Below, piece by piece: positions 4,698 through 46,106 of a DNA stretch of 64,000 bases; positions within the stretch are counted from its first letter, which is position 1; every line of letters begins with the position of its first letter. This DNA is from a virus (taxonomy: Duplodnaviria > Heunggongvirae > Uroviricota > Caudoviricetes): positions 35,712 to 99,711 of the IMG/VR virus record IMGVR_UViG_3300033143_002040, one strand, 5' to 3'. The notes beneath the pieces are model-generated. The model was not told where the DNA came from. It saw nothing but the letters and a program-made list of their open reading frames with translations, and ran no database searches. A program made the translations under genes and the position numbers.

Positions 4698-6227
4698 ATG
4701 AGAGATTTAACAGTAGGTAAAAAAGACTATGCATTATTCTTGCCAGCGATAAGTGGCTTCTACACAGAAGTACTTGGTCGCTGTAGGAATTTTCCAGATT
4801 ACCTGCCGCCTGATAGGACACCTAAGGGTTTTGAAAATGGTATGGAAGGTCTTGATTTCTTCAACGAGGATAAGGGATATTTCTATTACGATGTGGGTTT
4901 GTATTCAGCAGGACACGCATACTTAGACGAAGAACGTACTAATAAATTTGAGTGGATGATTCAAGAGCGCGATAAGAAAAAGACTACGCTCTTGGGTGAT
5001 TCAGGCGGGTATCAAATCGGCAAAGGTGTTATTAAATTTGATTGGGAACACTTCTATGAAAAGAAAGGTGATCCAGGTTACATCGGCAAAGCAGATAAAA
5101 TGCGAGCAGATATTCTTCATTGGCTTGAATACACGGCTGATTGGTCACTAACACTTGACGTACCTACATGGGCGTACATGGAAGAAACAGCAAGAGAACG
5201 CACAGGGTTGCGCACATTCCAAGAATGCTTAGATGCAACATTATTTAATCTCGATTATTTTGTTGAGCATAGAGAAAACAAAACAAAGTTCCTCAACGTA
5301 CTTCAAGGTACAACGTGGGATGATGCAAACACTTGGTACGACGCCGTAAAGGACTATCCGTTCGAAGGTTGGGCAATGGGCGGCAATAATATGCGCGACA
5401 TAGAAATCGCCCTTCGGCGTCTTATTATTATGCGGGACGAAGGGTACTTAGAAGGTAAAGATTGGATTCACTTCTTAGGAACTTCTAAACTTGAGTGGGC
5501 AGTAATGCTAACTGGTGTACAACGTGAATTGCGTAAGCACGTAAATCCGAATGTAACAGTCAGTTATGATGCAGCAAGTCCATTCATCGCAGCAGCAAAC
5601 GGCCGCATGTATACATATAATTCTTTGTTATGCGACAAACTTAGCTATGTGATGGATAGGGGATTTGACGGTAGACAATTAGCTCATAGTGATATTCCGT
5701 TTCCGTTTGAAAGTGAAATCGGACGGCGGTTAACAGTCGGTGATGTTTGTCACTACGGTAAAGGTGATCTTAACAAGCTTGGCAAGGTCACTAACTCAGC
5801 TTGGGATTCGTTTACTTATACAATTCTAGGAGCGCACAATTGCTACGCGCACATACGCGCAGTACAACGCATCAATCACCTTAGTGACTTAGAGAGTATG
5901 CGATTCGATCCAGATTGGAGAACATGGACAAAGACAAAGCGCAAATCTAAAGCAGCAGAAATGTCTTTTTGGGTTCCGCGAAATTTGTTGTACTTCAATA
6001 ATTTTATCAAAGAACTATTTGTATCGGACAATCCTATGCAGATGCTAGATGATGCTTCACCATTACTTCAAGAAATGACTAATCAGAAATATATCGACGG
6101 CAACACAGCATTATTTCAAGATTTGTTCGGAGATGAGAATGATAATGAAGTTATAACTGGCGAAGATTATGGACGCGAAGATGATGTACTTGATGCACTA
6201 GAAAGAAAACTGAGGAATGAAAACTAA
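4698..6227 (+). CDS. tRNA-guanine-transglycosylase-superfamily protein, DpdA-like putative DNA 7-deazaguanine transglycosylase
   Basis: LLGDSGGYQIGKG matches the TGT catalytic LTDSGGYQ motif; C-terminal Cys/His cluster (CHYGKG...AHNCYAH) in the position of the TGT Zn site; QueD/QueE homologs nearby. Confidence 0.6.
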   Translation: MRDLTVGKKDYALFLPAISGFYTEVLGRCRNFPDYLPPDRTPKGFENGMEGLDFFNEDKGYFYYDVGLYSAGHAYLDEERTNKFEWMIQERDKKKTTLLGDSGGYQIGKGVIKFDWEHFYEKKGDPGYIGKADKMRADILHWLEYTADWSLTLDVPTWAYMEETARERTGLRTFQECLDATLFNLDYFVEHRENKTKFLNVLQGTTWDDANTWYDAVKDYPFEGWAMGGNNMRDIEIALRRLIIMRDEGYLEGKDWIHFLGTSKLEWAVMLTGVQRELRKHVNPNVTVSYDAASPFIAAANGRMYTYNSLLCDKLSYVMDRGFDGRQLAHSDIPFPFESEIGRRLTVGDVCHYGKGDLNKLGKVTNSAWDSFTYTILGAHNCYAHIRAVQRINHLSDLESMRFDPDWRTWTKTKRKSKAAEMSFWVPRNLLYFNNFIKELFVSDNPMQMLDDASPLLQEMTNQKYIDGNTALFQDLFGDENDNEVITGEDYGREDDVLDALERKLRNEN

Positions 6228-6564
6228 TAATTCAAAAATACTTATTCCTATTGTTAGGAAACTCTATCCAAACATGATAGCTGATATGATTACGAAAGTT
6301 CAGCCGATGCAAGGCAAAACGGGTTCAATCTTTAGCCTGAATATAGAAGATTCTATAATTAATCCTTGGTCAGAATGGCGTAGAACAACAAGTTTATGGC
6401 CGCGTGAATCAATTACAGGAAAATGGATTGTTGGCCGCATCAACAAACGTGGACGGAATGTTTGGGGTGGCGGTGGTATGCAAGGTAAGGCTACTCGCAA
6501 ACGACAATTCGCAACAAACAAAGAATTATTTGCATTAAAATTAAAAGGTAATAGCGATGAGTGA
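6217..6564 (+). CDS. small protein, KEYFKKKLxG-family (subfamily with PR(K/E)SITGK box)
   Basis: WPRESITGKWIVGRINKRG ... NKELFALKLKGNSDE. Confidence 0.55.
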   Translation: MKTNNSKILIPIVRKLYPNMIADMITKVQPMQGKTGSIFSLNIEDSIINPWSEWRRTTSLWPRESITGKWIVGRINKRGRNVWGGGGMQGKATRKRQFATNKELFALKLKGNSDE

Positions 6565-6955
6565 TTTATATATTGTTGATTCTGGAACTGTTACTACTGG
6601 TAACGTATTAACATATACCACCACTAATACGGGTTCTATATGGGTCGCGCATGAACCATTAGCTCCGCCACCGCGGGTAAGCCCAATTCCGCCGCCCGTG
6701 CTTGATCCGTTTATCAAGAGGGAGTTTTGGGATGATGTAGAATGGAAAGAATATACTTCTTACATGCCGCGGAAATCAATTACAGGTAAGATTATTATAG
6801 GAAAAATGCATAAGCGTAGTAAAAAAGATATTATAAAAGGTGGAACTTATCATACATCAAATGTTACAAATACAATACTTGATAGAGCAATTCCTCATAC
6901 ACAATATGCTAAAACAAAAGAATTGTTTGAAGAAAAACTAAGAGGCAAAGCATGA
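6557..6955 (+). CDS. small protein, KEYFKKKLxG-family (PRKSITGK box)
   Basis: MPRKSITGKIIIGKMHKRS ... TKELFEEKLRGKA; paralog of 6217..6564. Confidence 0.55.
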   Translation: MSDLYIVDSGTVTTGNVLTYTTTNTGSIWVAHEPLAPPPRVSPIPPPVLDPFIKREFWDDVEWKEYTSYMPRKSITGKIIIGKMHKRSKKDIIKGGTYHTSNVTNTILDRAIPHTQYAKTKELFEEKLRGKA

Positions 6956-8502: not shown

Positions 8503-8780
8503 TGGTAATAGAGATTGACGGCATTATCCATAACGGCAACCTTAAAACTGAATGGACTAAGTGGAGGGAAACATTTTGTTTCTTGCCACATAAAGACATT
8601 ACAGGAATATTTATCATGGGACTTATATGGTGTCGTGTGCAGGAATCTCGTATATATAAATATGAAAATGACATAGGTTATTACATATCGTCTAATTTAG
8701 GATATGTAGAGTACGCTAGAACGAAGAAAGATATTTTCTTACGTAGTCTCGCAGGAAAAGAATATAGGATAAAAATATGA
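8502..8780 (+). CDS. small protein, KEYFKKKLxG-family variant (HKDITG box)
   Basis: WTKWRETFCFLPHKDITGIFIMG ... TKKDIFLRSLAGKE. Confidence 0.5.
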   Translation: MVIEIDGIIHNGNLKTEWTKWRETFCFLPHKDITGIFIMGLIWCRVQESRIYKYENDIGYYISSNLGYVEYARTKKDIFLRSLAGKEYRIKI

Positions 8781-9310
8781 TTTATGAAGTTAAATATTGG
8801 CCTAACCCTTGTTTGAAGGAGGCCGCAAAAGATGTTACTGATTTGAGTCTTGAGGTATGCAATGACATAATTGCTAATTTATTTGAGACTATGTATACAG
8901 GACACGGCATGGGTCTTGCAGCAACACAATGTAACATACCGCTGTGTATTATGGTAATAGACACAACACAAATAGGCGGAAAGCTTAAGCAAGCATTTAT
9001 AAATCCTGTTATCAAAGAACTAACAGAAAAGAAAATCATTTCAGAAGAAGGCTGCTTAAGCTTTCCTGGAATTTTTGTGAAGATAGAACGCTGTGACGGC
9101 GTAGTAGTGGAACACACGACCTTGACAGGAGAGACAGAACAAGCTATACTAAATGGTGTAGATGCTATTTGCTTTCAGCATGAATACGACCACTTAAATG
9201 GTATTGTATTTTACGATCATTTGAAAGCAGCAAAGAGACAAATGATGGAAACGAAAGTACGTAAGAATGTGAAAAAGATAATAAGACTGGAAAACAAACA
9301 TGCGCATTAA
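8777..9310 (+). CDS. def: peptide deformylase
   Basis: GxGxAAxQ (GMGLAATQ), EGCLSFPG, HEYDHLNG motifs. Confidence 0.9.
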   Translation: MIYEVKYWPNPCLKEAAKDVTDLSLEVCNDIIANLFETMYTGHGMGLAATQCNIPLCIMVIDTTQIGGKLKQAFINPVIKELTEKKIISEEGCLSFPGIFVKIERCDGVVVEHTTLTGETEQAILNGVDAICFQHEYDHLNGIVFYDHLKAAKRQMMETKVRKNVKKIIRLENKHAH

Positions 9311-14436: not shown

Positions 14437-15351
14437 ATGAGCAATAAATATAAATACAGCGAAATATTTACTTCGATTCAAGGCGAAGGAACCTACTGTG
14501 GAACACCGACAGTTTGGCTTCGTTGGTTCTTATGTAATTTACAATGCAGCGGCTTTGGTCAGAAAATACCAGAAGAACGCAGTACACATATTTTACCATA
14601 TAAAGAATTCGACGTTAGCACTGTAAAGCGTATCGAAGATTTACCTGTTTGGGATTATGGTTGTGATTCTAGCTATAGCTGGGCGCGGAAATTCAAAGAT
14701 TTATGTCCTGCGCATACAGCAAGACAACTTGCACAGAAACTAGAAAACGAATTACGCAAGTTTGACAACAATCCTGACGGAAAATTCTTGCTAAATAATG
14801 AGCGCGAGCTAAAAGATGTACATTTTTGTATGACAGGTGGTGAGCCGATGCTTGAACGTACACAAGTAGGGCAAGTCGAGTTACTGCATGCGTTAGCAGA
14901 TAATGTGAACTTACCAAGATTTATTACAGTAGAGACAAACGGAACACAGACGCTAACAGATGAATTAGCAAAAACAATCTCGTCATACGTAGCAAGCGGC
15001 GGAGAATGGTTTTGGTCGTGTTCGCCTAAGCTATTATATACAAGTGGTGAGAAGCCAACTAAGGCAATTAAGCCTGCTGTAGTCAAAACGTATCAAGACG
15101 TTAGTGCGTTTGGACAACTAAAGTTTGTTGTAAGCAACAGACCAGAAGCATGGGATGAACTTGAAGAACGAGTTGAAGATTTTAGGAATGCAGGGATTGA
15201 GTGGCCTGTTTGGATAATGCCCGTTGGCGCGACAGTCGAATCACAACAAGACGAGGATGCTATTGCAATAATTGAGGAAACTATTCGTAGAGGTTATCAC
15301 GTTGCTACGAGAGTACATTGTTACATTTGGGGCAATCAGATAGGAACATAA
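14437..15351 (+). CDS. queE: QueE-like 7-carboxy-7-deazaguanine synthase (radical SAM)
   Basis: FTSIQGEGTYCGTPTVWLRWFLCNLQC matches the QueE signature; FCMTGGEPM SAM-binding motif; Cys spacing is atypical (CNLQC ... distant C). Confidence 0.65.
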   Translation: MSNKYKYSEIFTSIQGEGTYCGTPTVWLRWFLCNLQCSGFGQKIPEERSTHILPYKEFDVSTVKRIEDLPVWDYGCDSSYSWARKFKDLCPAHTARQLAQKLENELRKFDNNPDGKFLLNNERELKDVHFCMTGGEPMLERTQVGQVELLHALADNVNLPRFITVETNGTQTLTDELAKTISSYVASGGEWFWSCSPKLLYTSGEKPTKAIKPAVVKTYQDVSAFGQLKFVVSNRPEAWDELEERVEDFRNAGIEWPVWIMPVGATVESQQDEDAIAIIEETIRRGYHVATRVHCYIWGNQIGT

Positions 15352-16150: not shown

Positions 16151-16349
16151 ACGTTGGCTGAAACGTAGATGCAGGGCAGATGAAAAACTTGTTTGTTGGG
16201 CAACGTTGCGTATAATAACTCGAGGTGAAACATATTACGAGTATCAGATGAACGGAACGAAGATGAATAATATCATCATAAATGAAAAAGAATATTTTAA
16301 GCAAGCCCTATTAGGGTTTAAGGGATTTAAATTTTATGACAAAAATTAA
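16137..16349 (+). CDS. KEYFKKKLxG-family protein
   Basis: ...INEKEYFKQALLGFKG. Confidence 0.45.
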   Translation: MDPTERWLKRRCRADEKLVCWATLRIITRGETYYEYQMNGTKMNNIIINEKEYFKQALLGFKGFKFYDKN

Positions 16350-16926
16350 AAGAATTTTACCTTTCGGTTGGTTTCCAGGACACTGGGGTCTAACAGGAAA
16401 AGTACGTGAAAGAGCAGAAGCAGAATACACACTCATTGGCGAAAGTCTCGACAAGAAAAATATCGAGATTAATCTTGGTGATCGAACTGATGAGGAAGTT
16501 GCAGTAGCATTACTTGAACACGAAGTAAAATACGGTAGGCTAACTCAGAAAGAACTTGACAAGCAAAGTGCAACTATTAAAAATGAACCTTGGGTGGATG
16601 TTAAGAATCTAGAAACAGATCCTGATAATCCTCGCTATGGCGGCGTTGAACTTGACTGGAATCAAGCATTCATTGACCACTTAGAGAAACATGGCTACGG
16701 TCCAAATCCAGATGATGAAGACACAGTTAATGATTGGTTCAACGATCTATGCAGAAACATTGCGTTAGATGCATATGATGGTGTTGGGGACTTTCAGGAA
16801 CGAGTAGAGGATACTTCTCAGGTAGCTCGTCGTACAAACATACACGAAGACGCCATTCCTATAAATATTGCTCCGCCGATTGATGGTGCAGAAAGTATAG
16901 AAGATATTGCAGACGATGATCTATAA
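16336..16926 (+). CDS. hypothetical acidic protein (196 aa)
   Basis: tiled ORF. Confidence 0.5.
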   Translation: MTKIKRILPFGWFPGHWGLTGKVRERAEAEYTLIGESLDKKNIEINLGDRTDEEVAVALLEHEVKYGRLTQKELDKQSATIKNEPWVDVKNLETDPDNPRYGGVELDWNQAFIDHLEKHGYGPNPDDEDTVNDWFNDLCRNIALDAYDGVGDFQERVEDTSQVARRTNIHEDAIPINIAPPIDGAESIEDIADDDL

Positions 16927-18725: not shown

Positions 18726-18926
18726 ATGGCAGACGAAATAAAAAACTTTCGTTTAAAAATACGCAATACAGCTAGTCTCAAACGGAGAGAATTATCATTT
18801 GGTTTGGCAGAAGCGCAGCTTCTAGATACCGAAATAGTTGCTCTTGAAGCACATATAGAAAAATTAGAACTGGAGCTCCTACAGACAAAAACAATGTCCA
18901 TTGATATTGTGGGACGTGATTTTTAA
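18726..18926 (+). CDS. hypothetical coiled-coil protein (66 aa)
   Basis: ORF. Confidence 0.35.
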   Translation: MADEIKNFRLKIRNTASLKRRELSFGLAEAQLLDTEIVALEAHIEKLELELLQTKTMSIDIVGRDF

Positions 18927-18939
18927 ATGTGGAGTTTTA

Positions 18940-19995
18940 ATGAAAAGACTATTTATAGGGCTAGTCGCTCTATTGACAATCAGTACGGGGCAAGCACACG
19001 ACTTAGCTGATAGAATGAATGAGGTGCTTCCTGCCGTTGCGTATATACGAGTAGAACAATTTGCTGTCCGCGATAAGCTAAATCCTCTTACCAAACTTAC
19101 CTCTTCCATCCGAGTTCCAACCACACCTATCATTGGTACAGGATTTATCATTGATAATAACAACGTAGTAACAAATTATCACGTTATTGCTTCCGCTGTA
19201 AAACATAATACTGAAATTCACATAACCTTTGAAGGAAGTAATCAACGATTTCTAGCAACAGTTATTGGTTACGATAAAATAGCTGACGTTGCTTTGCTAA
19301 TAATTCCAGGTGAACACCAAAGTGTTGAGATATTAGATGACACTGATTTACGGATGGGCGATCCCGTATTCAGCATATCACATTTTTATGGCATCGGTTG
19401 GTCAGGCACACAAGGTGTAATTAGTTCTATTCGCCGGCAAGATCAACGATATCCTTACATCAATAACCTACAACTACAGCTATTGCAAGGCAGTGGTAGT
19501 TCAGGTGGCCCTGTATTCAATATGAATGGCGATGTCATTGCATTAAATCGAAGTATTCTTTCTATGTTTCCAAAATCAATAATACAAACACGTAGTTCCG
19601 TTCTTTCTATGGTAGGCTATCCTGTAAGGGGAGATACATTGATAGCTGCAATCGCGGGCATACGCAAGGATATCATTGTCGTGTATCTTGATCTAGGAGT
19701 GTCATTGATAACATTTGGAAAGGATAGTATGTTTCACCTTAACTATGCAAATGGAGATGATGAATACCCTATCGGCGTAATGGTAATGAGCATTGATAAA
19801 AATATATCTACTACTTTGCAACAATCAGATATTATTATCAGCATAGAAGGCAATAAATTCTCTGATCCTTCTGAGTTGTTTACATGGCTTAATGAACAGA
19901 TCAAATATAAAGTTGGAGATACAGTTAACATACAAGTTTACCGAGACGCAGAAATCATAAATATTGCAGTACCAATAACAATAGCAGGATTATAA
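18940..19995 (+). CDS. secreted trypsin-like serine protease (HtrA/DegP S1C-like) with N-terminal signal peptide
   Basis: MKRLFIGLVALLTISTGQA signal; His in NYHVIAS, Asp in DVALLII, Ser in GSSGGPVF. Confidence 0.85.
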   Translation: MKRLFIGLVALLTISTGQAHDLADRMNEVLPAVAYIRVEQFAVRDKLNPLTKLTSSIRVPTTPIIGTGFIIDNNNVVTNYHVIASAVKHNTEIHITFEGSNQRFLATVIGYDKIADVALLIIPGEHQSVEILDDTDLRMGDPVFSISHFYGIGWSGTQGVISSIRRQDQRYPYINNLQLQLLQGSGSSGGPVFNMNGDVIALNRSILSMFPKSIIQTRSSVLSMVGYPVRGDTLIAAIAGIRKDIIVVYLDLGVSLITFGKDSMFHLNYANGDDEYPIGVMVMSIDKNISTTLQQSDIIISIEGNKFSDPSELFTWLNEQIKYKVGDTVNIQVYRDAEIINIAVPITIAGL

Positions 19996-20223
19996 ATGGA
20001 ACAAATCAAAGTTTACACGAAGAAACGCTGTCCGTATTGCACGGCGGCCAAACTATGGTTATCTCAAAGAAACTATGACTACACAGAAATTAGTCTCGAT
20101 GATGCTGATGAACAAAACAAATTTATTTCCTGTTATCCTGCACTTCGAACTGTTCCGCAAATATTTGTTGGGGATAAGAGCATTGGCGGGTTTAACGAAC
20201 TTACCAAATCTAAACTTGCGTAA
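19996..20223 (+). CDS. glutaredoxin / NrdH-like redoxin
   Basis: CPYC active site; 75 aa; TVPQIFVGDKSIGG. Confidence 0.8.
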   Translation: MEQIKVYTKKRCPYCTAAKLWLSQRNYDYTEISLDDADEQNKFISCYPALRTVPQIFVGDKSIGGFNELTKSKLA

Positions 20224-20253: not shown

Positions 20254-20895
20254 ATGAATTACGAATTTTACTATAACAGGCTGAATCAACGATCGGAAAA
20301 TCGGTTGCTAGAAGGCTATACTGAGAAACATCATATTATCCCCCGCTGCATGGGTGGCACGGATGATCCTGAGAACATTGCTATATTGACCGCTAGAGAA
20401 CATCATATAGCACACCAGTTATTGGTTAAGATGTATCCTGGCCATCACGGATTGATCTCCGCATTAAACGTAATGAGAACTGCTAGCAGTAAAAAGTATA
20501 GCTGGATTAAACGATTATGCCACGAACAATTATCTAAGAACTACAATGATCGTTATGGGGTTGATCGAGCGAAAAAGATAAGGAATAAACAATCTGTTTC
20601 GAAGATGGGCAATACCAACGGGCGATTCGGAAAAGGATGGAAAGCTACACCCGAACAAAAAGCAAGGATGTCCGAGGCACATAAAGGACAACTCGCATGG
20701 AATAAGGGCAAGAAAACTGGACCACAGACCCACGAACGCATTTCTCATCGTGCTCGTAAATGTCAAAAATCTTGTACAGTCGATGGCATAAAATATTCTT
20801 CGCGCAATGAAGCTGCTGACAAATTAAATATTCATATCACCACTATATATAAATGGCTTGCAAGCGGGCGAGCAAAGGAACACACAAATGGCTAG
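20254..20895 (+). CDS. HNH homing endonuclease (free-standing, copy 1)
   Basis: HHIIPRCMGGTDDPENIAILTAREHHIAH; paralog of 45414..46106. Confidence 0.8.
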   Translation: MNYEFYYNRLNQRSENRLLEGYTEKHHIIPRCMGGTDDPENIAILTAREHHIAHQLLVKMYPGHHGLISALNVMRTASSKKYSWIKRLCHEQLSKNYNDRYGVDRAKKIRNKQSVSKMGNTNGRFGKGWKATPEQKARMSEAHKGQLAWNKGKKTGPQTHERISHRARKCQKSCTVDGIKYSSRNEAADKLNIHITTIYKWLASGRAKEHTNG

Positions 20896-21554: not shown

Positions 21555-21610
21555 AACAACGACTTAAGTACAGGTGTCGTAAGTTATTGATTCTTATGGA
21601 TATAAAGTGC

Positions 21611-21639
21611 TTGACATAAGTGCTTGATTCCTGTAATAT
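21611..21639 (+). promoter_or_regulatory. sigma70-consensus promoter TTGACA-17-TAATAT
   Basis: TTGACA 21611-21616, TAATAT 21634-21639; flanked by AAGTGCTTGA repeats. Confidence 0.6.
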
Positions 21640-21686
21640 AAGCACAATGGTATAGAACTATGTCATAGATACAGGAGAAATTCATA

Positions 21687-22010
21687 ATGGCGATTAATCG
21701 ACGCAAAACAGAAGAAGTACGCACAAGCACTCTAGCCGATGGCACGAGTGTAGAATGCGTAGTATGGGCAATTGAGCTAGACGGCGAACAGGTCGGCGAA
21801 GCTTGTGCTACATACAAGACAAAGACCCAGCGCACCTGGGATGCTAGCATGACCGTTGACGGAGTTTCAGTTTCGGTAGAAGGCATTGCTTCAATTAGCA
21901 AGGCCGTAACTGCATTGAACGATCAGTTGGTAGCTGCAACGGCTACTGATGCTGCTGATACAGCGGATGCTAACATTGAGATTGTTGAGTCTGAGGACGC
22001 TACAGCGTAA
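21687..22010 (+). CDS. small acidic Ala/Thr-rich protein (107 aa) in its own promoter-terminator unit
   Basis: RBS AGGAGA; followed by intrinsic terminator. Confidence 0.55.
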   Translation: MAINRRKTEEVRTSTLADGTSVECVVWAIELDGEQVGEACATYKTKTQRTWDASMTVDGVSVSVEGIASISKAVTALNDQLVAATATDAADTADANIEIVESEDATA

Positions 22011-22030
22011 TCTACTCCTTTCCAAGTAAA

Positions 22031-22056
22031 GAGGCCCCGCTAAGGGGCCTTTTTTA
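22031..22056 (+). terminator. rho-independent terminator (GGCCCC-gctaa-GGGGCC + T6)
   Basis: perfect 6-bp GC stem and U-tract. Confidence 0.8.
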
Positions 22057-22152
22057 TACCTGTAAGGAATTCAATGACTTAATACGTGTACGTAACTATC
22101 TGTTTTTAAAGAGTTTCCACTTAAGTGCTTGATGTTAAACAGGTTATAGTTG

Positions 22153-22181
22153 TTGACAAATGGCGCGCAGTTCCATATAAT
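22153..22181 (+). promoter_or_regulatory. sigma70-consensus promoter TTGACA-17-TATAAT
   Basis: perfect -35 and -10 hexamers. Confidence 0.7.
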
Positions 22182-22238
22182 ACACATACTAGATAGACAA
22201 ACGCAAGTCACATAAACGATTAATAAGGAACACGCACC

Positions 22239-23351
22239 ATGGCTAAGACAGACACGAATCAAAAAAGCATTCCAGTTCGACCTTCTGAACTTGTAGAAGT
22301 AGTCGAGCATGTAATGTCAGTAGGCCGTCCTTGCATGATTTGGGGACCGCCAGGAATCGGCAAATCAGACATTATCGCACAGATCGGAGCGAGAGAGAAT
22401 CGTCCCGTGATCGACCTGCGTTTGCTCTTGATGGAGCCGACTGACCTTAAAGGCATCCCTTTCTACGATCCGAAGACGGAAACGATGAAGTGGGGCAAGC
22501 CAGGTGAGCTTCCAGGTGAGGCCGATACAGAACTGCATAACGCTATTCTGTTCCTTGACGAGATTAACGCTGCACCGCAGTCGGTTCAGGCCGCTGCATA
22601 TCAGTTGATTCTGAATCGCAGAATTGGCGAGTACGAGCTTCCTGAATGTGTAAGTATCGTTGCTGCTGGTAACAGAGAGACTGATCGCGCAGTAACTTTT
22701 CGCATGCCGTCAGCACTTGCTAACAGGTTCATGCACTTTGAATTGATCGTATCTTTCGAAGATTGGCAGGACTGGGCAATTCGACACGGCGTACATCCTG
22801 ACGTAGTTGGTTTCTTGACTGCGCATCCGAACTACTTGTTCCAGTTTGATCCGAAGAGTGGCGACAAGGCTTTTGCTACTCCGCGTTCGTGGACGTTCGT
22901 TGGAGAGGCTCTGACTGACAAGCTTTCTGACAAGCTGAACGAAGTCATGGTCGCTGGCACAGTTGGTCTTGGACTCGCTACTGAATTCATGCAGAGCAGG
23001 CGCTTGAAAGGCAAGCTTCCGAATCCTCGCGACATCGTGTTGGGCAAGGTTACTAAGCTGAAGGAAGACAAAGCGATTGACGTTTCTGCTAAGTACTCGC
23101 TGGTTATCGGCATGTGCTACGCAATGTCTGAAATCAAGCAAGAGTTTGAAATGGACAAGTCTAAGGGTGACAAGGACTGGAACAAGGTCACTGACAACTT
23201 TTTGAAGTTTATGATGATCCCTGAACACTTCAAGAAGGAAATGGTCATCATGGCTGCTGTTACAGCATTCCGTCGCTACGACTTGGACTTCGATTCTGAG
23301 ACTCCCACTTTCAACAAATTCTTCAAAGAGTACCAAGAGTGGATTGTCTAA
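22239..23351 (+). CDS. MoxR/CobS-like AAA+ ATPase
   Basis: Walker A GPPGIGKS; Walker B ILFLDEINAAP; 370 aa typical of CobS/MoxR. Confidence 0.85.
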   Translation: MAKTDTNQKSIPVRPSELVEVVEHVMSVGRPCMIWGPPGIGKSDIIAQIGARENRPVIDLRLLLMEPTDLKGIPFYDPKTETMKWGKPGELPGEADTELHNAILFLDEINAAPQSVQAAAYQLILNRRIGEYELPECVSIVAAGNRETDRAVTFRMPSALANRFMHFELIVSFEDWQDWAIRHGVHPDVVGFLTAHPNYLFQFDPKSGDKAFATPRSWTFVGEALTDKLSDKLNEVMVAGTVGLGLATEFMQSRRLKGKLPNPRDIVLGKVTKLKEDKAIDVSAKYSLVIGMCYAMSEIKQEFEMDKSKGDKDWNKVTDNFLKFMMIPEHFKKEMVIMAAVTAFRRYDLDFDSETPTFNKFFKEYQEWIV

Positions 23352-23377
23352 ATGGTTAACTGGTGCAACGTGACTTG

Positions 23378-23412
23378 CGCTATGATTGGCCGCCCCGAGA
23401 CTTTCTTTGGGC
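23378..23412 (+). terminator. rho-independent terminator
   Basis: GCCGCCC...GGGCGGTC stem followed by TTTTTT. Confidence 0.7.
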
Positions 23413-23536
23413 GGTCTTTTTTATGAGATTCAAACAGTTACAGGCGCTCGTAAGTCATTGATTCTATTAGAGCAGAAATACTCCAAAAATAGTTATAAGT
23501 TATTGATAACTATAGTAATAGAGATGCATAAAGTGG

Positions 23537-23565
23537 TTGACGCAAGGGGTGTTTTACCGTATAAT
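23537..23565 (+). promoter_or_regulatory. sigma70-like promoter TTGACG-17-TATAAT with upstream inverted repeat
   Basis: -35 TTGACG 23537-23542; -10 TATAAT 23560-23565. Confidence 0.65.
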
Positions 23566-23594
23566 ATGTATATAAATTGATAGGAACTAATCAA

Positions 23595-25088
23595 ATGTCA
23601 CAGAAGTTTTCCCCAGAAGATAAATTAGTCAAAGCACGTATTGATTTTATTTACAACGATTGCGTGTTTCTCGGCAACTTAGCACTTCGACTTGAATTGG
23701 TCGATGCTACCGCATGGTGTCCTACTGCGGCAACTGACTTCAAGCATTTGTACTACAATCGAGATTTTATTGATCGTTGTTCACTTGAAGAAACCAAATT
23801 TGTGATTGCACACGAGGTTATGCATTGTGTGTACGATCACTTTTCTCGTCGTGAGGAACGTGATCCGCGTCTGTACAATTGTGCTGGCGACTACGTAATT
23901 AACTTGGAACTGAAGGATCTTGGAATCGGTTCTTTTCCTTCCAGTAATACCATGATGGATCCGAAGTACGAAGAATTCATCAAAGAGAATTTCCCTGAGC
24001 GTTACCGAAAGTATAAGAAAGAATTTGCTGGTGGTGAGCCAGGTGTGCTTTGCGAAGAAAAGTATCGCGATATGTCTTCTGAGGAAGTCTACAACATCCT
24101 AAAGAAAGAACAGGATGAGCGGGACAAGCAGAATGGTAAAGGCGAGAGCGACGGCCAGTGTGGCGAATGTGGCGGTACTGGACAGGCCCCAGGCGATCAA
24201 GGTGAAGGCGATCAAGATGGTGAAGGCGAAGGTGGCAGCGGCCAATGTGGCGGAAGCACCCCAGGTGATTGCCCGTCTTGTGGTGGTTCTGGCAAGAGTA
24301 AAGGCGGCCAGAACGGACCAATTTCACACGATATGCATATGGATCCTGAGGCTGGTGATGCTGATGGTGACGAAAATGATGGCTCGCAAGGTCCGATCAA
24401 GATTGACCAAGAAGAAATTGATCGGATGGACAGCGATATGCGTAAAGCGATCATGGACGCAGCAGCAGTTGCATCCGAAGCACGTGGTGGCGCAGGTAAC
24501 ATCCCAGGTGGTGTTAAGCGTCTGATTGATGATTGGACAGATTCTACAGTTGACTGGCGCGAGTATTTGAATAACAGCATTCAGTCAACTTTGAAGTCAG
24601 ATTACACATGGCAGCGTCAGAGCAGGAAGTCTCGCTCTACGAATTACTACTTGCCTGCAATGGACAACGATATGATGGTTAGTGTCGATCTTGCGATTGA
24701 TACGTCAGGTTCAATGTCTGATGAAATGTTGAGAGACATTCTTGCAGAGGTTAAAGGTATCATGGAGCAGTTCGCAGACTTCAAGCTTCGTGTATGGTGC
24801 TTCGATACTGAAACGTATGAAGTTCACACGTACACACCTGACACGGTTGATGAGATTTATGACTTCGAGTTAGAAGGTGGCGGTGGTACGATGTTTGAGT
24901 GCAATTGGGAAATGATGCGTCAGGAAGAAATTGTTCCAGATCAGTTCATTCTCTGCACAGACGGTTACCCCTGCGGAACTTGGGGCGAAGAGGATTACTG
25001 CGATACAGTATTCTTGGTGCACGGTCGTAAGAGCATTGTTGCTCCCTTCGGTGTTACGGTACATCACGAAAACGCTACTGACGATTAA
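23595..25088 (+). CDS. VWA-domain protein with N-terminal HExxH zincin-like motif and Gly/Cys-rich acidic linker (CobT/MoxR-partner-like)
   Basis: IAHEVMHCVYDH; MIDAS DTSGSMSDEM; linker GECGGTGQAPGDQGEGDQDGEGEGGSGQCGGSTPGDCPSCGGSGKS. Confidence 0.7.
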   Translation: MSQKFSPEDKLVKARIDFIYNDCVFLGNLALRLELVDATAWCPTAATDFKHLYYNRDFIDRCSLEETKFVIAHEVMHCVYDHFSRREERDPRLYNCAGDYVINLELKDLGIGSFPSSNTMMDPKYEEFIKENFPERYRKYKKEFAGGEPGVLCEEKYRDMSSEEVYNILKKEQDERDKQNGKGESDGQCGECGGTGQAPGDQGEGDQDGEGEGGSGQCGGSTPGDCPSCGGSGKSKGGQNGPISHDMHMDPEAGDADGDENDGSQGPIKIDQEEIDRMDSDMRKAIMDAAAVASEARGGAGNIPGGVKRLIDDWTDSTVDWREYLNNSIQSTLKSDYTWQRQSRKSRSTNYYLPAMDNDMMVSVDLAIDTSGSMSDEMLRDILAEVKGIMEQFADFKLRVWCFDTETYEVHTYTPDTVDEIYDFELEGGGGTMFECNWEMMRQEEIVPDQFILCTDGYPCGTWGEEDYCDTVFLVHGRKSIVAPFGVTVHHENATDD

Positions 25089-25089
25089 A

Positions 25090-25476
25090 ATGTATCAGAT
25101 GGTCAATCATAACGGCAACAAGGCTTACGAAGTCGATAATAAGCTTTATCAGACTCAAATGGAAGCTAAAGTTGATATTCAAGTGCAAAGGGCGAAGATT
25201 GATATAGAAATATTGCGTCTTGAGCAACAGCGAATAGCAGACTTTAGAAAAAAAGTTGGCCTTACTTTGCTAGAGAATGATGCAAGTGTCATGTTCACAA
25301 AGACAAGACAAGCAGTAATCGAATTGGCATTTGCTCACGAAATGGGAAAGACTCAGTACGTGATAGACCAAGCAGCATTAGCAGTTGCAAATACTCGCAC
25401 AATGTACGACTCAGTTTGCAGAAAGATTTTTAAGATTTGTTTGAAGCATGGACTCAAGAGTGAGCATTTAAAATGA
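25090..25476 (+). CDS. hypothetical protein (128 aa; start MYQMVNH)
   Basis: internal start right after upstream stop. Confidence 0.45.
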   Translation: MYQMVNHNGNKAYEVDNKLYQTQMEAKVDIQVQRAKIDIEILRLEQQRIADFRKKVGLTLLENDASVMFTKTRQAVIELAFAHEMGKTQYVIDQAALAVANTRTMYDSVCRKIFKICLKHGLKSEHLK

Positions 25477-25727
25477 CTTTAGGTGAAATAGTAAATAAGC
25501 GTCAACTTGACCTTAGACTTGAAAAGGCAGAAGCAGAATTGCAGTCTGCCTTAAGAGTGCTTGACTACTTGCTAAAAGAATCGGCCGCGACATTGTTTGG
25601 ATATGAGCGTAAGCCGAATCATAAAGAACGTTGTTATGCTAACGCCAAGTCACTTGACGTAGCACACGAAAAAATTGAGAAGTGTAAGAAAGAATTGTTT
25701 CAATTCAAATTGAAACACGGTGAATGA
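25473..25727 (+). CDS. small protein with KEYFKKKLxG-like C-terminus
   Basis: ...CKKELFQFKLKHGE. Confidence 0.4.
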   Translation: MTLGEIVNKRQLDLRLEKAEAELQSALRVLDYLLKESAATLFGYERKPNHKERCYANAKSLDVAHEKIEKCKKELFQFKLKHGE

Positions 25728-25737
25728 GAGAAGAAAG

Positions 25738-26991
25738 ATGGCTAAGAAAATACAAAATTATGAAGTAATGAAAGGTTTGTCTGGACAAGGCATTATCAAG
25801 TCTTGGACAAAGGGCGTTCCGTTTGAGTCACAAGCGCGGGATCAGCTAAAGAATATTGCATCGTTGCCGTTCATCCACAAGCATGTAGCAGCGATGCCTG
25901 ACGTACATTTAGGTAAGGGCGCGACGGTTGGGTCAGTAATTGCAACTAAGGGTGCGATTATTCCTGCTGCGGTAGGAGTAGATATTGGTTGCGGAATGAA
26001 TGCTGTACGACTTTCGTTGAAAGCTGCGGATTTGCCTGACACATTAACAAACGTGCGCGGAGAAATTGAGCGCATGGTTCCTGTTGGTCACGACTATCAC
26101 ACACGTTCGCGTATGGGATCAAAGTGGCACAACAAGACTGACAAGCTTTTGAACAACACTAACCAGCAGTTAGACCCAGGAATGCGGTCGATTCTTGCAA
26201 AGCATCCTACGATTGGTAAGATAGGTCGTGACTTTGAAGATCGCGCATACCGTCAGATTGGTACGCTTGGTGGTGGTAATCACTTTATTGAACTTTGCTT
26301 AGACGAGGCGGATGATGTTTGGGTAATGCTTCACTCAGGTTCACGTAATCCAGGAAACTGTATCGGCAACTATTTCATTCAGCTTGCTAAGAAAGAAATG
26401 GAACGATTCTTCATTCAGCTTCCTGATAAGGATTTAGCATACTTGGCCGAAGGCACAGAGTACTACGATGATTATATCGAAGCTGTTGGCTGGGCGCAAG
26501 ACTTTGCATATCGTAATCGACAGGTTATGATGGAACTTGTAATCATGGCACTGGAGCGCAAGCTGCCGCCGTTCTTGATTACTAAGGAAGCAATCAACTG
26601 TCACCACAACTATGTTTCGATGGAGAATCACTTCGGTGCGAATGTACACGTAACTCGCAAGGGTGCTGTACGTGCGCGTGTAGGCGACTACGGAATTATT
26701 CCAGGATCAATGGGTGCTAAGTCATTCATCGTTCGCGGACTTGGTAACAAGGATTCATTTAACTCTTGCTCTCACGGAGCAGGACGTTCACATTCACGAT
26801 CAGCGGCTAAGCGATTGTTTACAGTCGAGGATCACGAACGAGCTACGGCAGGTGTTGAGTGTCGTAAGGATGCTGGTGTGCTTGATGAGACACCTGCTGC
26901 TTACAAGGACATTGATGCTGTTATGAATGCTCAGAGAGATTTAGTTGAGATTGTTCACACGTTGAAGCAAGTAGTCTGCGTAAAAGGATAA
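25738..26991 (+). CDS. rtcB: RtcB RNA 3'-phosphate ligase
   Basis: MPDVHLGKGATVGSV, GVDIGCGM, GGGNHFIEL, CHHNY, HGAGRS motifs all present and in order. Confidence 0.9.
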   Translation: MAKKIQNYEVMKGLSGQGIIKSWTKGVPFESQARDQLKNIASLPFIHKHVAAMPDVHLGKGATVGSVIATKGAIIPAAVGVDIGCGMNAVRLSLKAADLPDTLTNVRGEIERMVPVGHDYHTRSRMGSKWHNKTDKLLNNTNQQLDPGMRSILAKHPTIGKIGRDFEDRAYRQIGTLGGGNHFIELCLDEADDVWVMLHSGSRNPGNCIGNYFIQLAKKEMERFFIQLPDKDLAYLAEGTEYYDDYIEAVGWAQDFAYRNRQVMMELVIMALERKLPPFLITKEAINCHHNYVSMENHFGANVHVTRKGAVRARVGDYGIIPGSMGAKSFIVRGLGNKDSFNSCSHGAGRSHSRSAAKRLFTVEDHERATAGVECRKDAGVLDETPAAYKDIDAVMNAQRDLVEIVHTLKQVVCVKG

Positions 26992-31256: not shown

Positions 31257-32765
31257 ATGGATAGTATAATGTCAGGGTTTAGCTTGGTACCGAGCTTTGG
31301 CGGACAGATCGCGATTGGGATAGGTGTATTTCTATTCCTCGTTGTCTTTGTCGCCAAACTGTATCGAGTGGTAGTAAGGCCGAACGAGGTGCATGTTGTA
31401 CAGAATCGCAACTCGACGGTAATGTATGGTAAGACACCCGAGCCTGTTGAAGACGCTAATGGCGATTTAATTGAAAGCACAGATCACATCGTCAGCAACA
31501 GTTATTACGCATGGCCTACTTGGTGGCCGCGTATTGGTGTAACAGTTAGAATTTTGTCACTGGCTATTTTCGACCAAAAGCTAACTGATTACGAAGCATA
31601 CGATATTGGTAAGGTTCCGTTTATGGTTGACGTAGTAGCGTTCTTCCGTATCTTTGATCCATCTATTGCTGCGAAGCGCACGACTGATCTACATGAGTTG
31701 CGTTGCCAGCTAGAATCAATCTTGCAAGGTGCTACACGTAACATTCTTGCTAAGAACGAGATTGAAGAAATCATGCAGGAGCGTAACACGTATGGTCAAT
31801 TGTTTACGACTGAGACCGAAGATCAACTACGGGCTTGGGGCGTAAGTAATGTTAAGAATATCGAGCTTATGGATATTCGTGACGGTAAGGACTCTAGGGT
31901 TGTTACAGACATCATGGCTAAGAAAGAATCTTTGATTGATCGTGAGTCGCGTGTTGTTCGTGCTGATAACAAAAAGAAAGCCGAGACAGCGGAAATTGAG
32001 GCAGGACAGGTTATTGCTGTTCGCGCTCAAGAAGCTGAACAGTTAGTTGGTGAGCGTACTGCTGAGAAAGACAAGCAGGTTGGTATCGCTAACGAAATGG
32101 CGAATCAGGAAATTCAAGAGCAAGCTAAGACTACTGCTGAGAAAATTATGGCAGTTCAGTTGGTCGAGAATGTTCGTGCTGCTGAGATTAACCGCGAAGT
32201 ACAAGTAGTTGCGGCAGATCAGGACAAGCAGACGTTTGTTATTCGTGCAGACGGTGAGAAGCAGCAGAAGATTATTACTGCCGAAGCTGAGAAAGCTGAG
32301 ACAGTACTTGTTGCTGAAGGTATCTTGGTACAGCAGTTGAAAGACGCTGAAGGTATTCTCGCAGTCGGTACTTCTGAGGCAGAAGCAAAACGCTTGTTTG
32401 AAATGGCTCGCGTTACACCTGAGCTAGAAATGGCTCGCGAAATTGGCGAAAACGAAGGTTATCAGGGTTACTTGGTTAGCATTCGTGGAGTCGAGAAAGA
32501 CGAGACAGTTGGCGTTGAGCAAGCTAAGGCATTGCAGGATGCTGGCATCAAGGTTATTGCTAACACAGGAAATGTCGCTAGCGGCATTGACAGTGTGATG
32601 GATCTTTTCTCCGCAGCAGGCGGAACAGAAATCGCAGCAATGGCTGAGGCGCTTAGTCAGACTGACGCTGGAGCAGCACTGTTGAGTCGTTTGGGTATTA
32701 ATACCGGGACTGAAAAGACAACGACAGCAAAGCCACGCAAAGTAACAGCGGCTAAAAAGTCGTAG
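31257..32765 (+). CDS. SPFH/band-7 (flotillin/YqiK-like) membrane protein with long coiled-coil C-terminus
   Basis: N-terminal TM helix; YDIGKVPFMVDVVAFFRIFDP SPFH core; EA/EQ-rich coiled coil. Confidence 0.75.
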   Translation: MDSIMSGFSLVPSFGGQIAIGIGVFLFLVVFVAKLYRVVVRPNEVHVVQNRNSTVMYGKTPEPVEDANGDLIESTDHIVSNSYYAWPTWWPRIGVTVRILSLAIFDQKLTDYEAYDIGKVPFMVDVVAFFRIFDPSIAAKRTTDLHELRCQLESILQGATRNILAKNEIEEIMQERNTYGQLFTTETEDQLRAWGVSNVKNIELMDIRDGKDSRVVTDIMAKKESLIDRESRVVRADNKKKAETAEIEAGQVIAVRAQEAEQLVGERTAEKDKQVGIANEMANQEIQEQAKTTAEKIMAVQLVENVRAAEINREVQVVAADQDKQTFVIRADGEKQQKIITAEAEKAETVLVAEGILVQQLKDAEGILAVGTSEAEAKRLFEMARVTPELEMAREIGENEGYQGYLVSIRGVEKDETVGVEQAKALQDAGIKVIANTGNVASGIDSVMDLFSAAGGTEIAAMAEALSQTDAGAALLSRLGINTGTEKTTTAKPRKVTAAKKS

Positions 32766-35196: not shown

Positions 35197-35757
35197 ATGA
35201 TGAGTGATACATTAATTTTAAACGCAGATGGCAACCCGTTATCGGTAGTTCCGATTTCGGTTGTTTCATGGATGACAGCAATTAGGCTTGCTTACCAACA
35301 TAAGGTACGAGTTATTAGTTCGTATGAAGATTGGGAAGTGCATTCACCTAGCTGCACCTGGCAGGTTCCGTCGATTGTTATGTGTACGGAATTTGTGAAG
35401 TGGAGCAGGCAAGTCAAGTACAATCGCAGCAACATTTTGCTACGAGATATGTACACCTGTCAGCTTTGTGGTGCTAAGCCGCCTGCGAGTCAGTTAACTC
35501 TTGACCACGTAGTTCCTAGAGTTCACGGTGGTAAGACGAACTGGACTAACATCGTTGCTGCATGTAAGAAGTGTAACCACGACAAGGGTCACAACAAGAA
35601 GATTCGTCCTAAGAGGCTTCCGACTAAGCCGAACTATTACGAGCTAATGGCAAAGAGGATGAAGTTCCCAATTACGATTCGTGATCCAGAATGGCTAACA
35701 TTCCTAGCATGGCCTGAGGATAAGATCGAGATTCGCCCTCCACGGAAGGTTGCATGA
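35197..35757 (+). CDS. HNH nuclease (McrA/HNH-family)
   Basis: CQLCGAKP...LDHVVPRVHGGKTNWTNIVAACKKCNHDKG. Confidence 0.8.
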   Translation: MMSDTLILNADGNPLSVVPISVVSWMTAIRLAYQHKVRVISSYEDWEVHSPSCTWQVPSIVMCTEFVKWSRQVKYNRSNILLRDMYTCQLCGAKPPASQLTLDHVVPRVHGGKTNWTNIVAACKKCNHDKGHNKKIRPKRLPTKPNYYELMAKRMKFPITIRDPEWLTFLAWPEDKIEIRPPRKVA

Positions 35758-45413: not shown

Positions 45414-46106
45414 TTAACTCCTAGTCTTCTCATTTATTTTCTGTGATGTCCAACCCTTAAATCCTTTGTGGACTGATTGGAAGGGTAAATTATTGTCTCT
45501 ACAATATTTACGTAAATTTTTAATCTGTGCTGTCTTGCCTTGTGGATCTGTGACGAGCCAATTACATGCTAATTTTTCTGCTTGTTTTTGTCGGGCTATT
45601 TTATTTTGTGACAGCAACCTAGCATTCTCACCAAATATTTTTCTCGCGTTGTCTGTAATAACACGCGATTTCCACGCTTCTTTTAATGCTTCTCTATGTG
45701 CTTCACTTTTTGGCTTGCCTTTTAAGGATGCAGAACGTTTAGCCTTTATAGCATCCGCATATTCTTTTCCATATCGTTCTTCGTATGTTTTTCCTTTGTA
45801 CAATACAGACATATTTTTTGCATGTTTTTCTCTCAACCATGCATAAAGTATATTACCTGTGCGTTCTTTCTGTTTCCCAGATGTCATCCTGTGTGCTGCA
45901 AATATAAGTTTTCTATTGTGAGGATATATCTTTACAAGCAGTAAGTGAGCTACATAATGTTCCCTTGCAGTCAATATTGAAATATTGCTAGGATCATCGC
46001 CACCGCCCATACACTTCGGAACGATATGATGTCTCTCAGTATATCCATCAAGCACACGATCTTGCGTTCTCTCATTCAGCCTGTTATAGTGTTCTATATA
46101 ATTCAT
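45414..46106 (-). CDS. HNH homing endonuclease (free-standing, copy 2) inserted in the tail-fibre operon
   Basis: HHIVPKCMGGGDDPSNISILTAREHYVAH; ~60% identical to the 20254 copy over the first 75 aa. Confidence 0.8.
   Translation of the reverse strand: MNYIEHYNRLNERTQDRVLDGYTERHHIVPKCMGGGDDPSNISILTAREHYVAHLLLVKIYPHNRKLIFAAHRMTSGKQKERTGNILYAWLREKHAKNMSVLYKGKTYEERYGKEYADAIKAKRSASLKGKPKSEAHREALKEAWKSRVITDNARKIFGENARLLSQNKIARQKQAEKLACNWLVTDPQGKTAQIKNLRKYCRDNNLPFQSVHKGFKGWTSQKINEKTRS

Follow-up and report, generated by a model that had tools for sequence, protein, structure and literature searches.

An HtrA-family serine protease with a predicted Sec signal peptide, encoded by an uncultured jumbo-phage relative of Pseudomonas phage PA5oct

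The DNA studied here is a stretch of 64,000 nucleotides from an uncultured phage (IMG/VR record IMGVR_UViG_3300033143_002040, positions 35,712 to 99,711; hereafter the window). It encodes a serine protease of the HtrA family with a predicted Sec-type signal peptide, followed directly by a small glutaredoxin. An earlier, sequence-only reading had placed this pair at positions 18940-20223, and these coordinates coincide exactly with two adjacent plus-strand open reading frames (ORFs), those of the protease and of the glutaredoxin; the minus-strand ORFs across the same interval are short and unsupported. We lean towards the view that the protease is an accessory, exported and soluble HtrA protease-chaperone that acts on proteins of the host envelope, be it in proteostasis or in remodelling. 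We infer its export, its activity and its substrates. On present evidence, the gene is an accessory gene annotated by homology and specific for one phage lineage, and not a new mechanism.

The earlier claim of an HtrA-family protease with an intact catalytic triad is well founded. Pfam recognizes Trypsin_2 in residues 66-202 (E = 9.7e-21, 75 bits against a cutoff of 27.6) and PDZ_2 in residues 267-345 (E = 1.1e-8, 35.7 bits against a cutoff of 27). In alignments with E. coli DegS and DegQ (reference sequences from NC_000913.3), His81, Asp116 and Ser188 fall on the catalytic triads of both enzymes in the order typical of the chymotrypsin fold, and Ser188 is part of the motif GSGSSGGPV (residues 184-192). 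The three residues as well as the sequence GSSGG are invariant in 28 family members with identities down to 42%. The carboxylate-binding loop DLGV of the C-terminal PDZ domain is the counterpart, in the same alignments, of YIGI in DegS and of LLGI in the PDZ1 domain of DegQ, and its residues Asp251 and Gly253 are invariant in the family. Structure comparison gives the same picture: A profile of the family finds DegP-like, DegQ, Deg1, MucD and DegS chains in the PDB (E = 1e-32 to 1e-20), and an AlphaFold monomer model built from the 28 family members (pLDDT 84, pTM 0.80) has exclusively HtrA proteins among its top 50 Foldseek matches in the PDB, with Deg1, DegP, DegQ, MucD, AlgW and DegS at E-values of 1e-22 to 1e-18. 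The only segment of at least three residues with a pLDDT below 50 spans residues 209-222, which correspond in the alignment to the L2 loop region of the two E. coli enzymes. Thus, the order of the triad and the presence of a C-terminal PDZ domain and its carboxylate-binding loop are those of MEROPS family S1C, and the extracytoplasmic targeting typical of this family is predicted from a conserved Sec-type arrangement of n-, h- and c-regions.

The sequence-only reading had called the protein DegP-like, and this label holds for the family but not for DegP itself: The phage protein has one PDZ domain rather than two, and its scores are far below the cutoffs of the DegP, DegQ and DegS equivalogs (Do family TIGR02037, 118 against 416 bits; DegQ, 72 against 756; DegP, 67 against 720). 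DegS does share the single PDZ domain, but here the scores fall short as well (TIGR02038, 58 against 423 bits; NF008147, 53 against 408). Periplasmic HtrA proteins of the DegQ/DegP type (MEROPS S1C), such as E. coli DegQ, Legionella DegQ and Helicobacter HtrA, resemble the phage protease in their cleavable-type N-terminal signal peptide and in the chymotrypsin-fold triad domain with a carboxylate-binding PDZ domain directly after it. They provide the best sequence-profile matches and are among the best structural ones. In contrast to these proteins, the protease studied here is encoded by a phage, has only one PDZ domain and a longer L2 loop, is about 22-26% identical to them, and carries QLQLLQGSGSSGGP in place of the QTDAAINxGNSGG that is usual in this group. 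The top Foldseek match is the plant chloroplast protein Deg1 (PDB 3qo6; E = 3e-22, 27% identity), which is also a single-PDZ HtrA protein and resides in the lumen, i.e. in an extracytoplasmic compartment; Deg1 is, however, eukaryotic and organellar, and the likeness is one at the level of the family.

There is good sequence evidence for export by the Sec system and for cleavage by signal peptidase I after Ala19. By a rule-based reading, the protein begins with MKR, continues with 14 uncharged residues and reaches a predicted cleavage site G-Q-A|H (Ala19|His20), with two basic residues in the n-region, Gly at position -3 and Ala at position -1. The pattern that had led to the earlier claim of a Sec signal peptide is conserved: 76 of 80 family members start with M-[KR]-[KR/Q/N], followed by 11-16 uncharged residues, a small-x-[A/T] site, a near-invariant His and [D/N/E]-L, and the remaining four are truncated gene calls. 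The hydrophobic core drifts in sequence and keeps its character, as is the case for signal peptides, and the first 20 residues are modelled with a pLDDT of only 54-58. Neither a twin-arginine motif nor a lipobox is present in the signal peptide. A lipoprotein was considered for the many family members that have a cysteine at position 7, and rejected: the preceding residues do not resemble a lipobox, the cysteine lies too near the N-terminus, and the protein of the window is free of cysteine. On the basis of these rules, and because the nearest cultured relatives have Gram-negative hosts, we infer that the mature protein of 36.6 kDa would reside in the periplasm.

The single PDZ domain raises the question of a DegS mimic, i.e. 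a protease that cleaves a host anti-sigma factor of the RseA or MucA type and thereby induces the sigma-E or AlgU regulon for the phage. Like DegS and AlgW, the single-PDZ stress-sensor HtrA proteins, the phage protease has this domain count and the same overall length, it ends at the alignment column at which DegS ends, and its carboxylate-binding loop is conserved. Moreover, DegS and AlgW structures yield the highest TM-scores among the top matches to the model (0.62-0.65). On the other hand, the DegS equivalog score quoted above is very low, the identity to E. coli DegS is 21%, and the profiles rank the DegP and DegQ types above DegS. The h-region, with 11-16 residues ahead of a signal peptidase site, is too short for the N-terminal membrane anchor that places DegS beside RseA. 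We therefore regard a DegS mimic as quite unlikely. The protease is thus an HtrA-family (S1C) protein that is not an orthologue of DegP, DegQ or DegS, one that combines the domain count of DegS with a signal peptide in the style of DegQ. The positions of these and of all other features are given in Table 1.

Table 1. Coordinates of features in the window and of the deletion junction in related contigs
Feature	Position	Strand	Basis or remark
Protease ORF	18940-19995	+	351 aa, ATG start
Protease Shine-Dalgarno sequence GGAG	18931-18934	+	5-nt spacer to the ATG; read from sequence
Signal peptide (predicted; Sec type, signal peptidase I), residues 1-19, MKRLFIGLVALLTISTGQA	18940..18996	+	sequence rules
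Trypsin-fold (MEROPS S1C / HtrA) protease domain	18997..19686	+	Pfam, PDB profile, AlphaFold/Foldseek
Catalytic triad His81 / Asp116 / Ser188	19180-19182 / 19285-19287 / 19501-19503	+	alignment to DegS and DegQ
Single C-terminal PDZ domain	19687..19995, then stop codon	+	Pfam PDZ_2
PDZ carboxylate-binding loop D251-L252-G253-V254	19690-19701	+	alignment
Cytoplasmic dithiol glutaredoxin, 75 aa	19996-20223	+	PF00462
Glutaredoxin Shine-Dalgarno sequence AGGA	19986-19989	+	within the last protease codons
Glutaredoxin CPYC (C12-P13-Y14-C15)	20029-20040	+	
66-aa coiled-coil protein	18726..18926	+	basic N-terminus, invariant C-terminal tail DIVGxxF-COOH
HNH-NUMOD3 homing endonuclease	20254..20895	+	Pfam HNH and NUMOD3; phrog_655, E 1e-44
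Deletion junction in relatives	L025 5198-5266; L026 same junction		compared with L022 1057-2067
Peptide deformylase / MoxR-VWA-RtcB / SPFH set	8777-9310, 22239-26991, 31257-32765	+	
Sigma-70-type promoters	2852, 9122, 14159, 22153, 23537, 38057	+	consensus match
5,308-aa ORF	46881-62807	-	no Pfam domain

Where the gene comes from is indicated by its surroundings. The window is DNA of an uncultured jumbo phage that is related to the Arenbergviridae-type jumbo phages and to Pseudomonas phage PA5oct. When the protease locus and the first 25 kb were compared by megablast with 50,697 phage records, there was no nucleotide match to any of them, so that the phage has no close cultured relative in this collection. 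At the protein level, the DNA polymerase is closest to the versions found in jumbo phages of Proteobacteria, with identities of 38-43% to the enzymes of Sinorhizobium phage Phosso, Vibrio phage 2.275.O, Atu_ph07 and Rak2-like phages. Over its first ~2,200-2,500 residues, the 5,308-aa ORF shares 40% identity with the giant virion structural protein that PA5oct and its relatives encode. A region of PA5oct is collinear with the window: It contains QueE, a 196-aa protein (32% identity), the 5'-3' exonuclease (50%) and a 163-aa protein (43%), and collinearity resumes past a variable slot with a 99-aa protein (59%), a 122-aa protein (33%) and the MoxR-type ATPase, which is 52% identical to its counterpart in PA5oct and the relatives of this phage. 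PA5oct fills the slot with three unrelated small ORFs; in the window, the same slot holds the gene for a 66-aa protein, the protease and glutaredoxin genes and then an inserted HNH homing endonuclease gene. This shared backbone identifies the protease region as phage DNA. The label 'virulent' in the sequence-only reading is an assumption that goes further than the evidence. The cultured phages of the PA5oct / Arenbergviridae-type group infect Gram-negative Proteobacteria. Weakly in line with a Gram-negative proteobacterial host are six strong sigma-70-type promoters (TTGACA-17 nt-TATAAT, 11-12 of 12 matches), all on the plus strand and all with 17-nt spacers, as compared to a chance expectation of about 2.8 for both strands combined; several of them lie just 5' of genes, as does the one at 22153 ahead of the MoxR ATPase gene.

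The family to which the protease belongs is small. A word-indexed search of 5.8 billion proteins recovered about 80 unnamed metagenomic relatives of 343-356 aa with 41-100% identity, together with a few truncated calls; past these, scores fall sharply to generic HtrA proteins (E = 1e-20). Similarly, phmmer against 1.84 billion representatives found only 10 clusters (at 50% identity) with E-values of 1e-30 or lower and lengths of 344-361 aa, and the next match had an E-value of 2e-25. Among 185,579 species-representative bacterial and archaeal genomes there was no family member, just generic HtrA genes at 26-29% identity and one 23-residue fragment, and in IMG/VR the family occurs at two loci only. 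These searches indicate a small protease clade found only in the PA5oct-related jumbo-phage lineage. The GC and GC3 contents of the protease gene resemble those of the neighbouring genes, and we rejected a recent horizontal acquisition. The earlier view that such proteases are uncommon in phages was confirmed: A tblastn search with the protease against the 50,697 phage records gave five weak matches (24-28% identity), and the one inspected, MW462191, has its HtrA gene flanked by genes for cytochrome c maturation and glutamine synthetase adenylyltransferase and was rejected as a phage HtrA. This record (MW462191.1), filed as 'Bacteriophage sp.', carries CcmE/F/L, a two-component system and the adenylyltransferase around the HtrA gene; the stretch is bacterial, and HtrA matches in phage databases therefore need checking. 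Of the other matches, which were rejected as well, one is in a record that is openly a Salmonella genome and two are in Acinetobacter records in which the gene is annotated 'degQ'. We found no description of a phage-encoded HtrA or DegP protein in the literature. Nevertheless, virus-encoded HtrA is rare yet not unprecedented, since the protease matches phrog_11383 (E = 1.5e-30), a family without assigned function, as well as HtrA-like proteins in the BFVD viral structure library (E = 1e-16 to 3e-8, 14-20% identity), mostly from giant viruses and in a few cases from phages. Named examples of such trypsin-fold proteins, with or without a PDZ domain, are the 'HtrA protease/chaperone' of Rhizobium phage AF3 and the Do-like proteases of giant viruses. 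We know of no described function for any of them.

A comparison of gene order in ten distinct lineages, in which the identity of the protease ranges from 72% down to 36%, revealed one fixed arrangement in all protease-bearing relatives examined: exonuclease, ~163-aa protein, 66-aa protein, protease, glutaredoxin, ~99-aa protein, ~122-aa protein, ~107-aa protein, MoxR ATPase, VWA protein and RtcB. Within this block the protease evolves in a way of its own. Relative to L001, the closest relative, it is 72% identical as compared to 88-95% for the neighbours other than glutaredoxin, and relative to L003 it has 47% identity as compared to 81% for the exonuclease. The dN/dS ratios against L001 are 0.157 for the protease, 0.108 for the glutaredoxin and 0.04-0.08 for seven neighbours, rough values given that dS is near saturation; dN is 0.178 for the protease, about three to five times the 0.036-0.070 of the neighbours. 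Together with the invariant catalytic residues, these ratios show a gene that is functional and under purifying selection, yet changes faster than the replication genes nearby.

Nature has also provided a deletion. In two metagenomic contigs from independent samples, L025 (JGI 3300027881) and L026 (SRR8436477), about 1.0 kb is cleanly missing, and all flanking proteins are 92-100% identical to those of L022. The deletion takes codons 1 to ~330 of the protease and leaves the last ~20 codons in place, and both variants retain the 66-aa gene and an intact glutaredoxin gene with its Shine-Dalgarno sequence. The protease is thus a dispensable accessory gene, at least in some settings, and both the glutaredoxin and the 66-aa protein are independent of it. 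Moreover, the protease cannot be an essential morphogenetic protease.

This last point bears on the idea, already raised in the sequence-only reading as an alternative to its own view, that the protease is associated with the virion, either in prohead maturation or as a packaged protein. The gene at 16336-16926, which is located two positions upstream of the exonuclease gene, matches a PHROG labelled virion structural protein and might be taken as a hint in this direction. However, the fold is that of HtrA proteins, and comparisons with Pfam, the PDB and Foldseek gave no known prohead protease family: the protein has neither a Herpesvirus/HK97-type nor a ClpP-type or T4 gp21-type fold, and its gene is not part of a head-assembly module. 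It lies in the replication block, on the strand opposite to that of the structural genes at 40-63 kb. Moreover, a conserved secretion signal would remove the protein from the cytoplasm, where capsids assemble, and the circulating variant that has lost the gene speaks against an indispensable role in assembly. We regard a virion or maturation role as effectively excluded; of all explanations discussed here it is the least probable.

The deletion variants also speak to the relation between the protease and the glutaredoxin. The sequence-only reading had suggested that the two may be functionally unrelated, and this is supported by the absence of cysteine from the mature protease, by the absence of a signal peptide from the glutaredoxin, and by the retention of the glutaredoxin where the protease is deleted. 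A redox pair in which the glutaredoxin activates or protects the protease, or in which both share a substrate, might be proposed from the adjacency of the genes, which are separated by 0-8 nt or overlap by 1 nt in every protease-bearing relative examined, and from the fact that both evolve faster than their neighbours. Yet the two proteins are predicted to be in different compartments, the mature protease offers no thiol, tight spacing is the rule across the block, and the variant that keeps an intact glutaredoxin gene with its own Shine-Dalgarno sequence largely refutes the idea. The pair can therefore be regarded as effectively excluded and its probability as very low. The adjacency is positional only, as tight junctions are common throughout this collinear block. 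Most likely, the glutaredoxin is a separate cytoplasmic thiol reductant for nucleotide or redox metabolism. Its ORF begins straight after the TAA of the protease gene. The match to PF00462 is clear (E = 1.5e-14, 54.4 bits against a cutoff of 22.9), and the dithiol-type CPYC site as well as the TVPQ and GG motifs of the glutathione site are present and conserved in eight relatives, with CPHC in two. With these motifs and a size of ~75-80 aa, it resembles bacterial glutaredoxin 3 (GrxC) and the phage reductants of thioredoxin/glutaredoxin fold in phrog_22, which it also matches; the best NCBIfam match is TIGR02181 (glutaredoxin 3), but with 71.8 bits it remains under the equivalog cutoff of 90. 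A match to NrdH (TIGR02194) falls even shorter (35.3 bits against a cutoff of 85.75). The earlier proposal of an nrdC-like protein finds no support, as the best match is of the Grx3 type and the 64-kb window contains neither an ORF of NrdA size nor a ribonucleotide reductase match; the contig extends past the window.

A further alternative concerns the timing of lysis or the egress of the phage: the protease might turn over a phage antiholin, spanin or endolysin regulator, or loosen the links between outer membrane and peptidoglycan. According to the passage of PMC8385771 that cites Tran et al. (2007), host DegP degrades the periplasmic T4 antiholin RI, and the predicted periplasmic location would suit such a function. 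However, deletion of degP had no effect on lysis inhibition in T4 (PMC8385771). In addition, the gene is located among replication and repair genes with no recognisable lysis gene adjoining, and a rule-based scan of the 64-kb window found no other ORF with a signal peptide and no lipoprotein. As with the DegS mimic, we consider a role in lysis unlikely.

How, then, would the protease work? If it is an envelope protease-chaperone, its gene would be transcribed with the early or middle genes, as its strand and its tight packing with the genes for the 5'-3' exonuclease, the MoxR ATPase, the VWA protein and RtcB suggest. The Sec machinery of the host would export the pre-protein, signal peptidase I would cut after Ala19, and the mature protein would be soluble in the Gram-negative periplasm, probably as a trimer as in other HtrA proteins. 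There, the PDZ domain may tether the exposed C-termini of unfolded or vulnerable envelope proteins, which the protease domain would then degrade. In this way, the protease could supply a DegP/DegQ-type activity under phage control during the long infection by a jumbo phage, with the stress induction of the host possibly switched off, and would be helpful but not essential.

Several observations weigh against this reading. First, the protease is the fastest-evolving gene of the block and the most diverged protein throughout, and a general role in quality control would usually predict slow evolution. Second, many family members have Thr at position -1, which is an uncommon site for signal peptidase I. 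Third, the assignment to the periplasm depends on the hosts of distant cultured relatives. Finally, no promoter was found immediately upstream of the protease gene, and the timing of its expression is read from gene position alone. The fast evolution fits a host-specific target at least as well as general proteostasis, and targeted remodelling of the envelope is thus the main rival: The protease would cleave a specific surface or periplasmic protein of the host rather than serve in general quality control. Candidates are the receptor of the phage itself (in superinfection exclusion, or to prevent the loss of progeny on debris), a porin, or a defence or sensor protein of the envelope. Such a protease would have the same predicted location as the chaperone-protease that we favour. 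A fast rate in the presence of an invariant triad is characteristic of proteins that keep pace with a variable partner in the host, and a gene that is accessory, sometimes lost and located in a variable slot of the PA5oct-type backbone is what one would expect for a function in host range or competition. Against this possibility it has to be said that no target can be named, that HtrA proteases normally need unfolded substrates, that the saturation of dS makes the rate comparison rough, and that a dN/dS of 0.16 gives no sign of gene-wide positive selection. We consider targeted remodelling a possible but clearly less probable explanation than accessory proteostasis or remodelling of the envelope by an exported HtrA protease-chaperone, and one that stands well ahead of a DegS mimic and of lysis timing.

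The 66-aa protein deserves attention in this context. Its gene is the first of the lineage-specific three-gene slot and directly precedes the protease gene in every protease-bearing locus. The family comprises 144 proteins, all of exactly 66 aa and all from the same phage lineage; there is no match above threshold in Pfam, PHROG or NCBIfam, and no signal peptide. The C-terminal Phe of the protein resembles the PDZ-binding C-termini that activate DegS; C-termini of outer membrane proteins that end in Phe are known as activators of DegS. It is tempting to speculate that the 66-aa protein, the protease and the glutaredoxin form one cassette for the takeover of the host envelope, in which the tail of the 66-aa protein is a dedicated PDZ ligand and the fast-evolving protease attacks one particular host protein, for instance a receptor or a defence sensor. 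Since both the 66-aa protein and the protease are confined to one lineage, their co-occurrence is not independent evidence of a link; the 66-aa gene also persists where the protease is deleted, and we consider the cassette improbable. If it were real, the phage would make its own allosteric activator, inhibitor or escort for the protease in the form of the 66-aa protein, and a phage signal rather than host stress would turn on proteolysis in the envelope.

Phages export holins, spanins, endolysins and superinfection-exclusion proteins, and to our knowledge no role has been described for a periplasmic protease of the quality-control type that is encoded by a phage. The protease is inherited vertically across a whole lineage of uncultured jumbo phages, with identities from 36% to 100%. 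With intact catalytic residues, quick evolution and a natural knock-out in circulating relatives, it poses a question that can be put to the test. Should it degrade specific envelope proteins, phages would have in it a new kind of tool for the removal of receptors or for counter-defence; if it is a general chaperone-protease, envelope proteostasis would join the host functions that jumbo phages carry, among them those of the peptide deformylase, RtcB, MoxR/VWA and SPFH genes of this region.

Some further features of the region can be added. It contains genes of the host-like maintenance type, i.e. those for a peptide deformylase, a MoxR AAA+ ATPase with its VWA/DUF2201 partner and an RtcB RNA ligase, and for a 502-aa SPFH/Band_7 protein with an N-terminal membrane anchor; the set suggests that the phage brings its own maintenance functions. 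QueE (14437-15351) points to 7-deazaguanine modification of the DNA. An Rfam scan found no RNA families in the window. The base composition shows a step at ~21600-22200: The upstream genes, from the 163-aa to the 122-aa protein, have a GC content of 0.33-0.42 and a GC3 content of 0.25-0.39, and from 21687 on (107-aa protein, ATPase, VWA, RtcB, SPFH) the values are 0.46-0.50 and 0.42-0.55, respectively. The HNH gene, which does not belong to the module, has been inserted in the gap that follows the glutaredoxin gene and precedes the conserved 99-aa gene. There is no endonuclease at this site in L001, L003, L006, L009, L020, L022 and L023, and L018 has a GIY-YIG-NUMOD3 gene (6003-6815) at the very same site; the intergenic site 3' of the glutaredoxin gene is thus an insertion spot for homing endonucleases. 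A second HNH gene of the window (45414-46106, minus strand) is 48% identical to the first over the N-terminal 130 residues.

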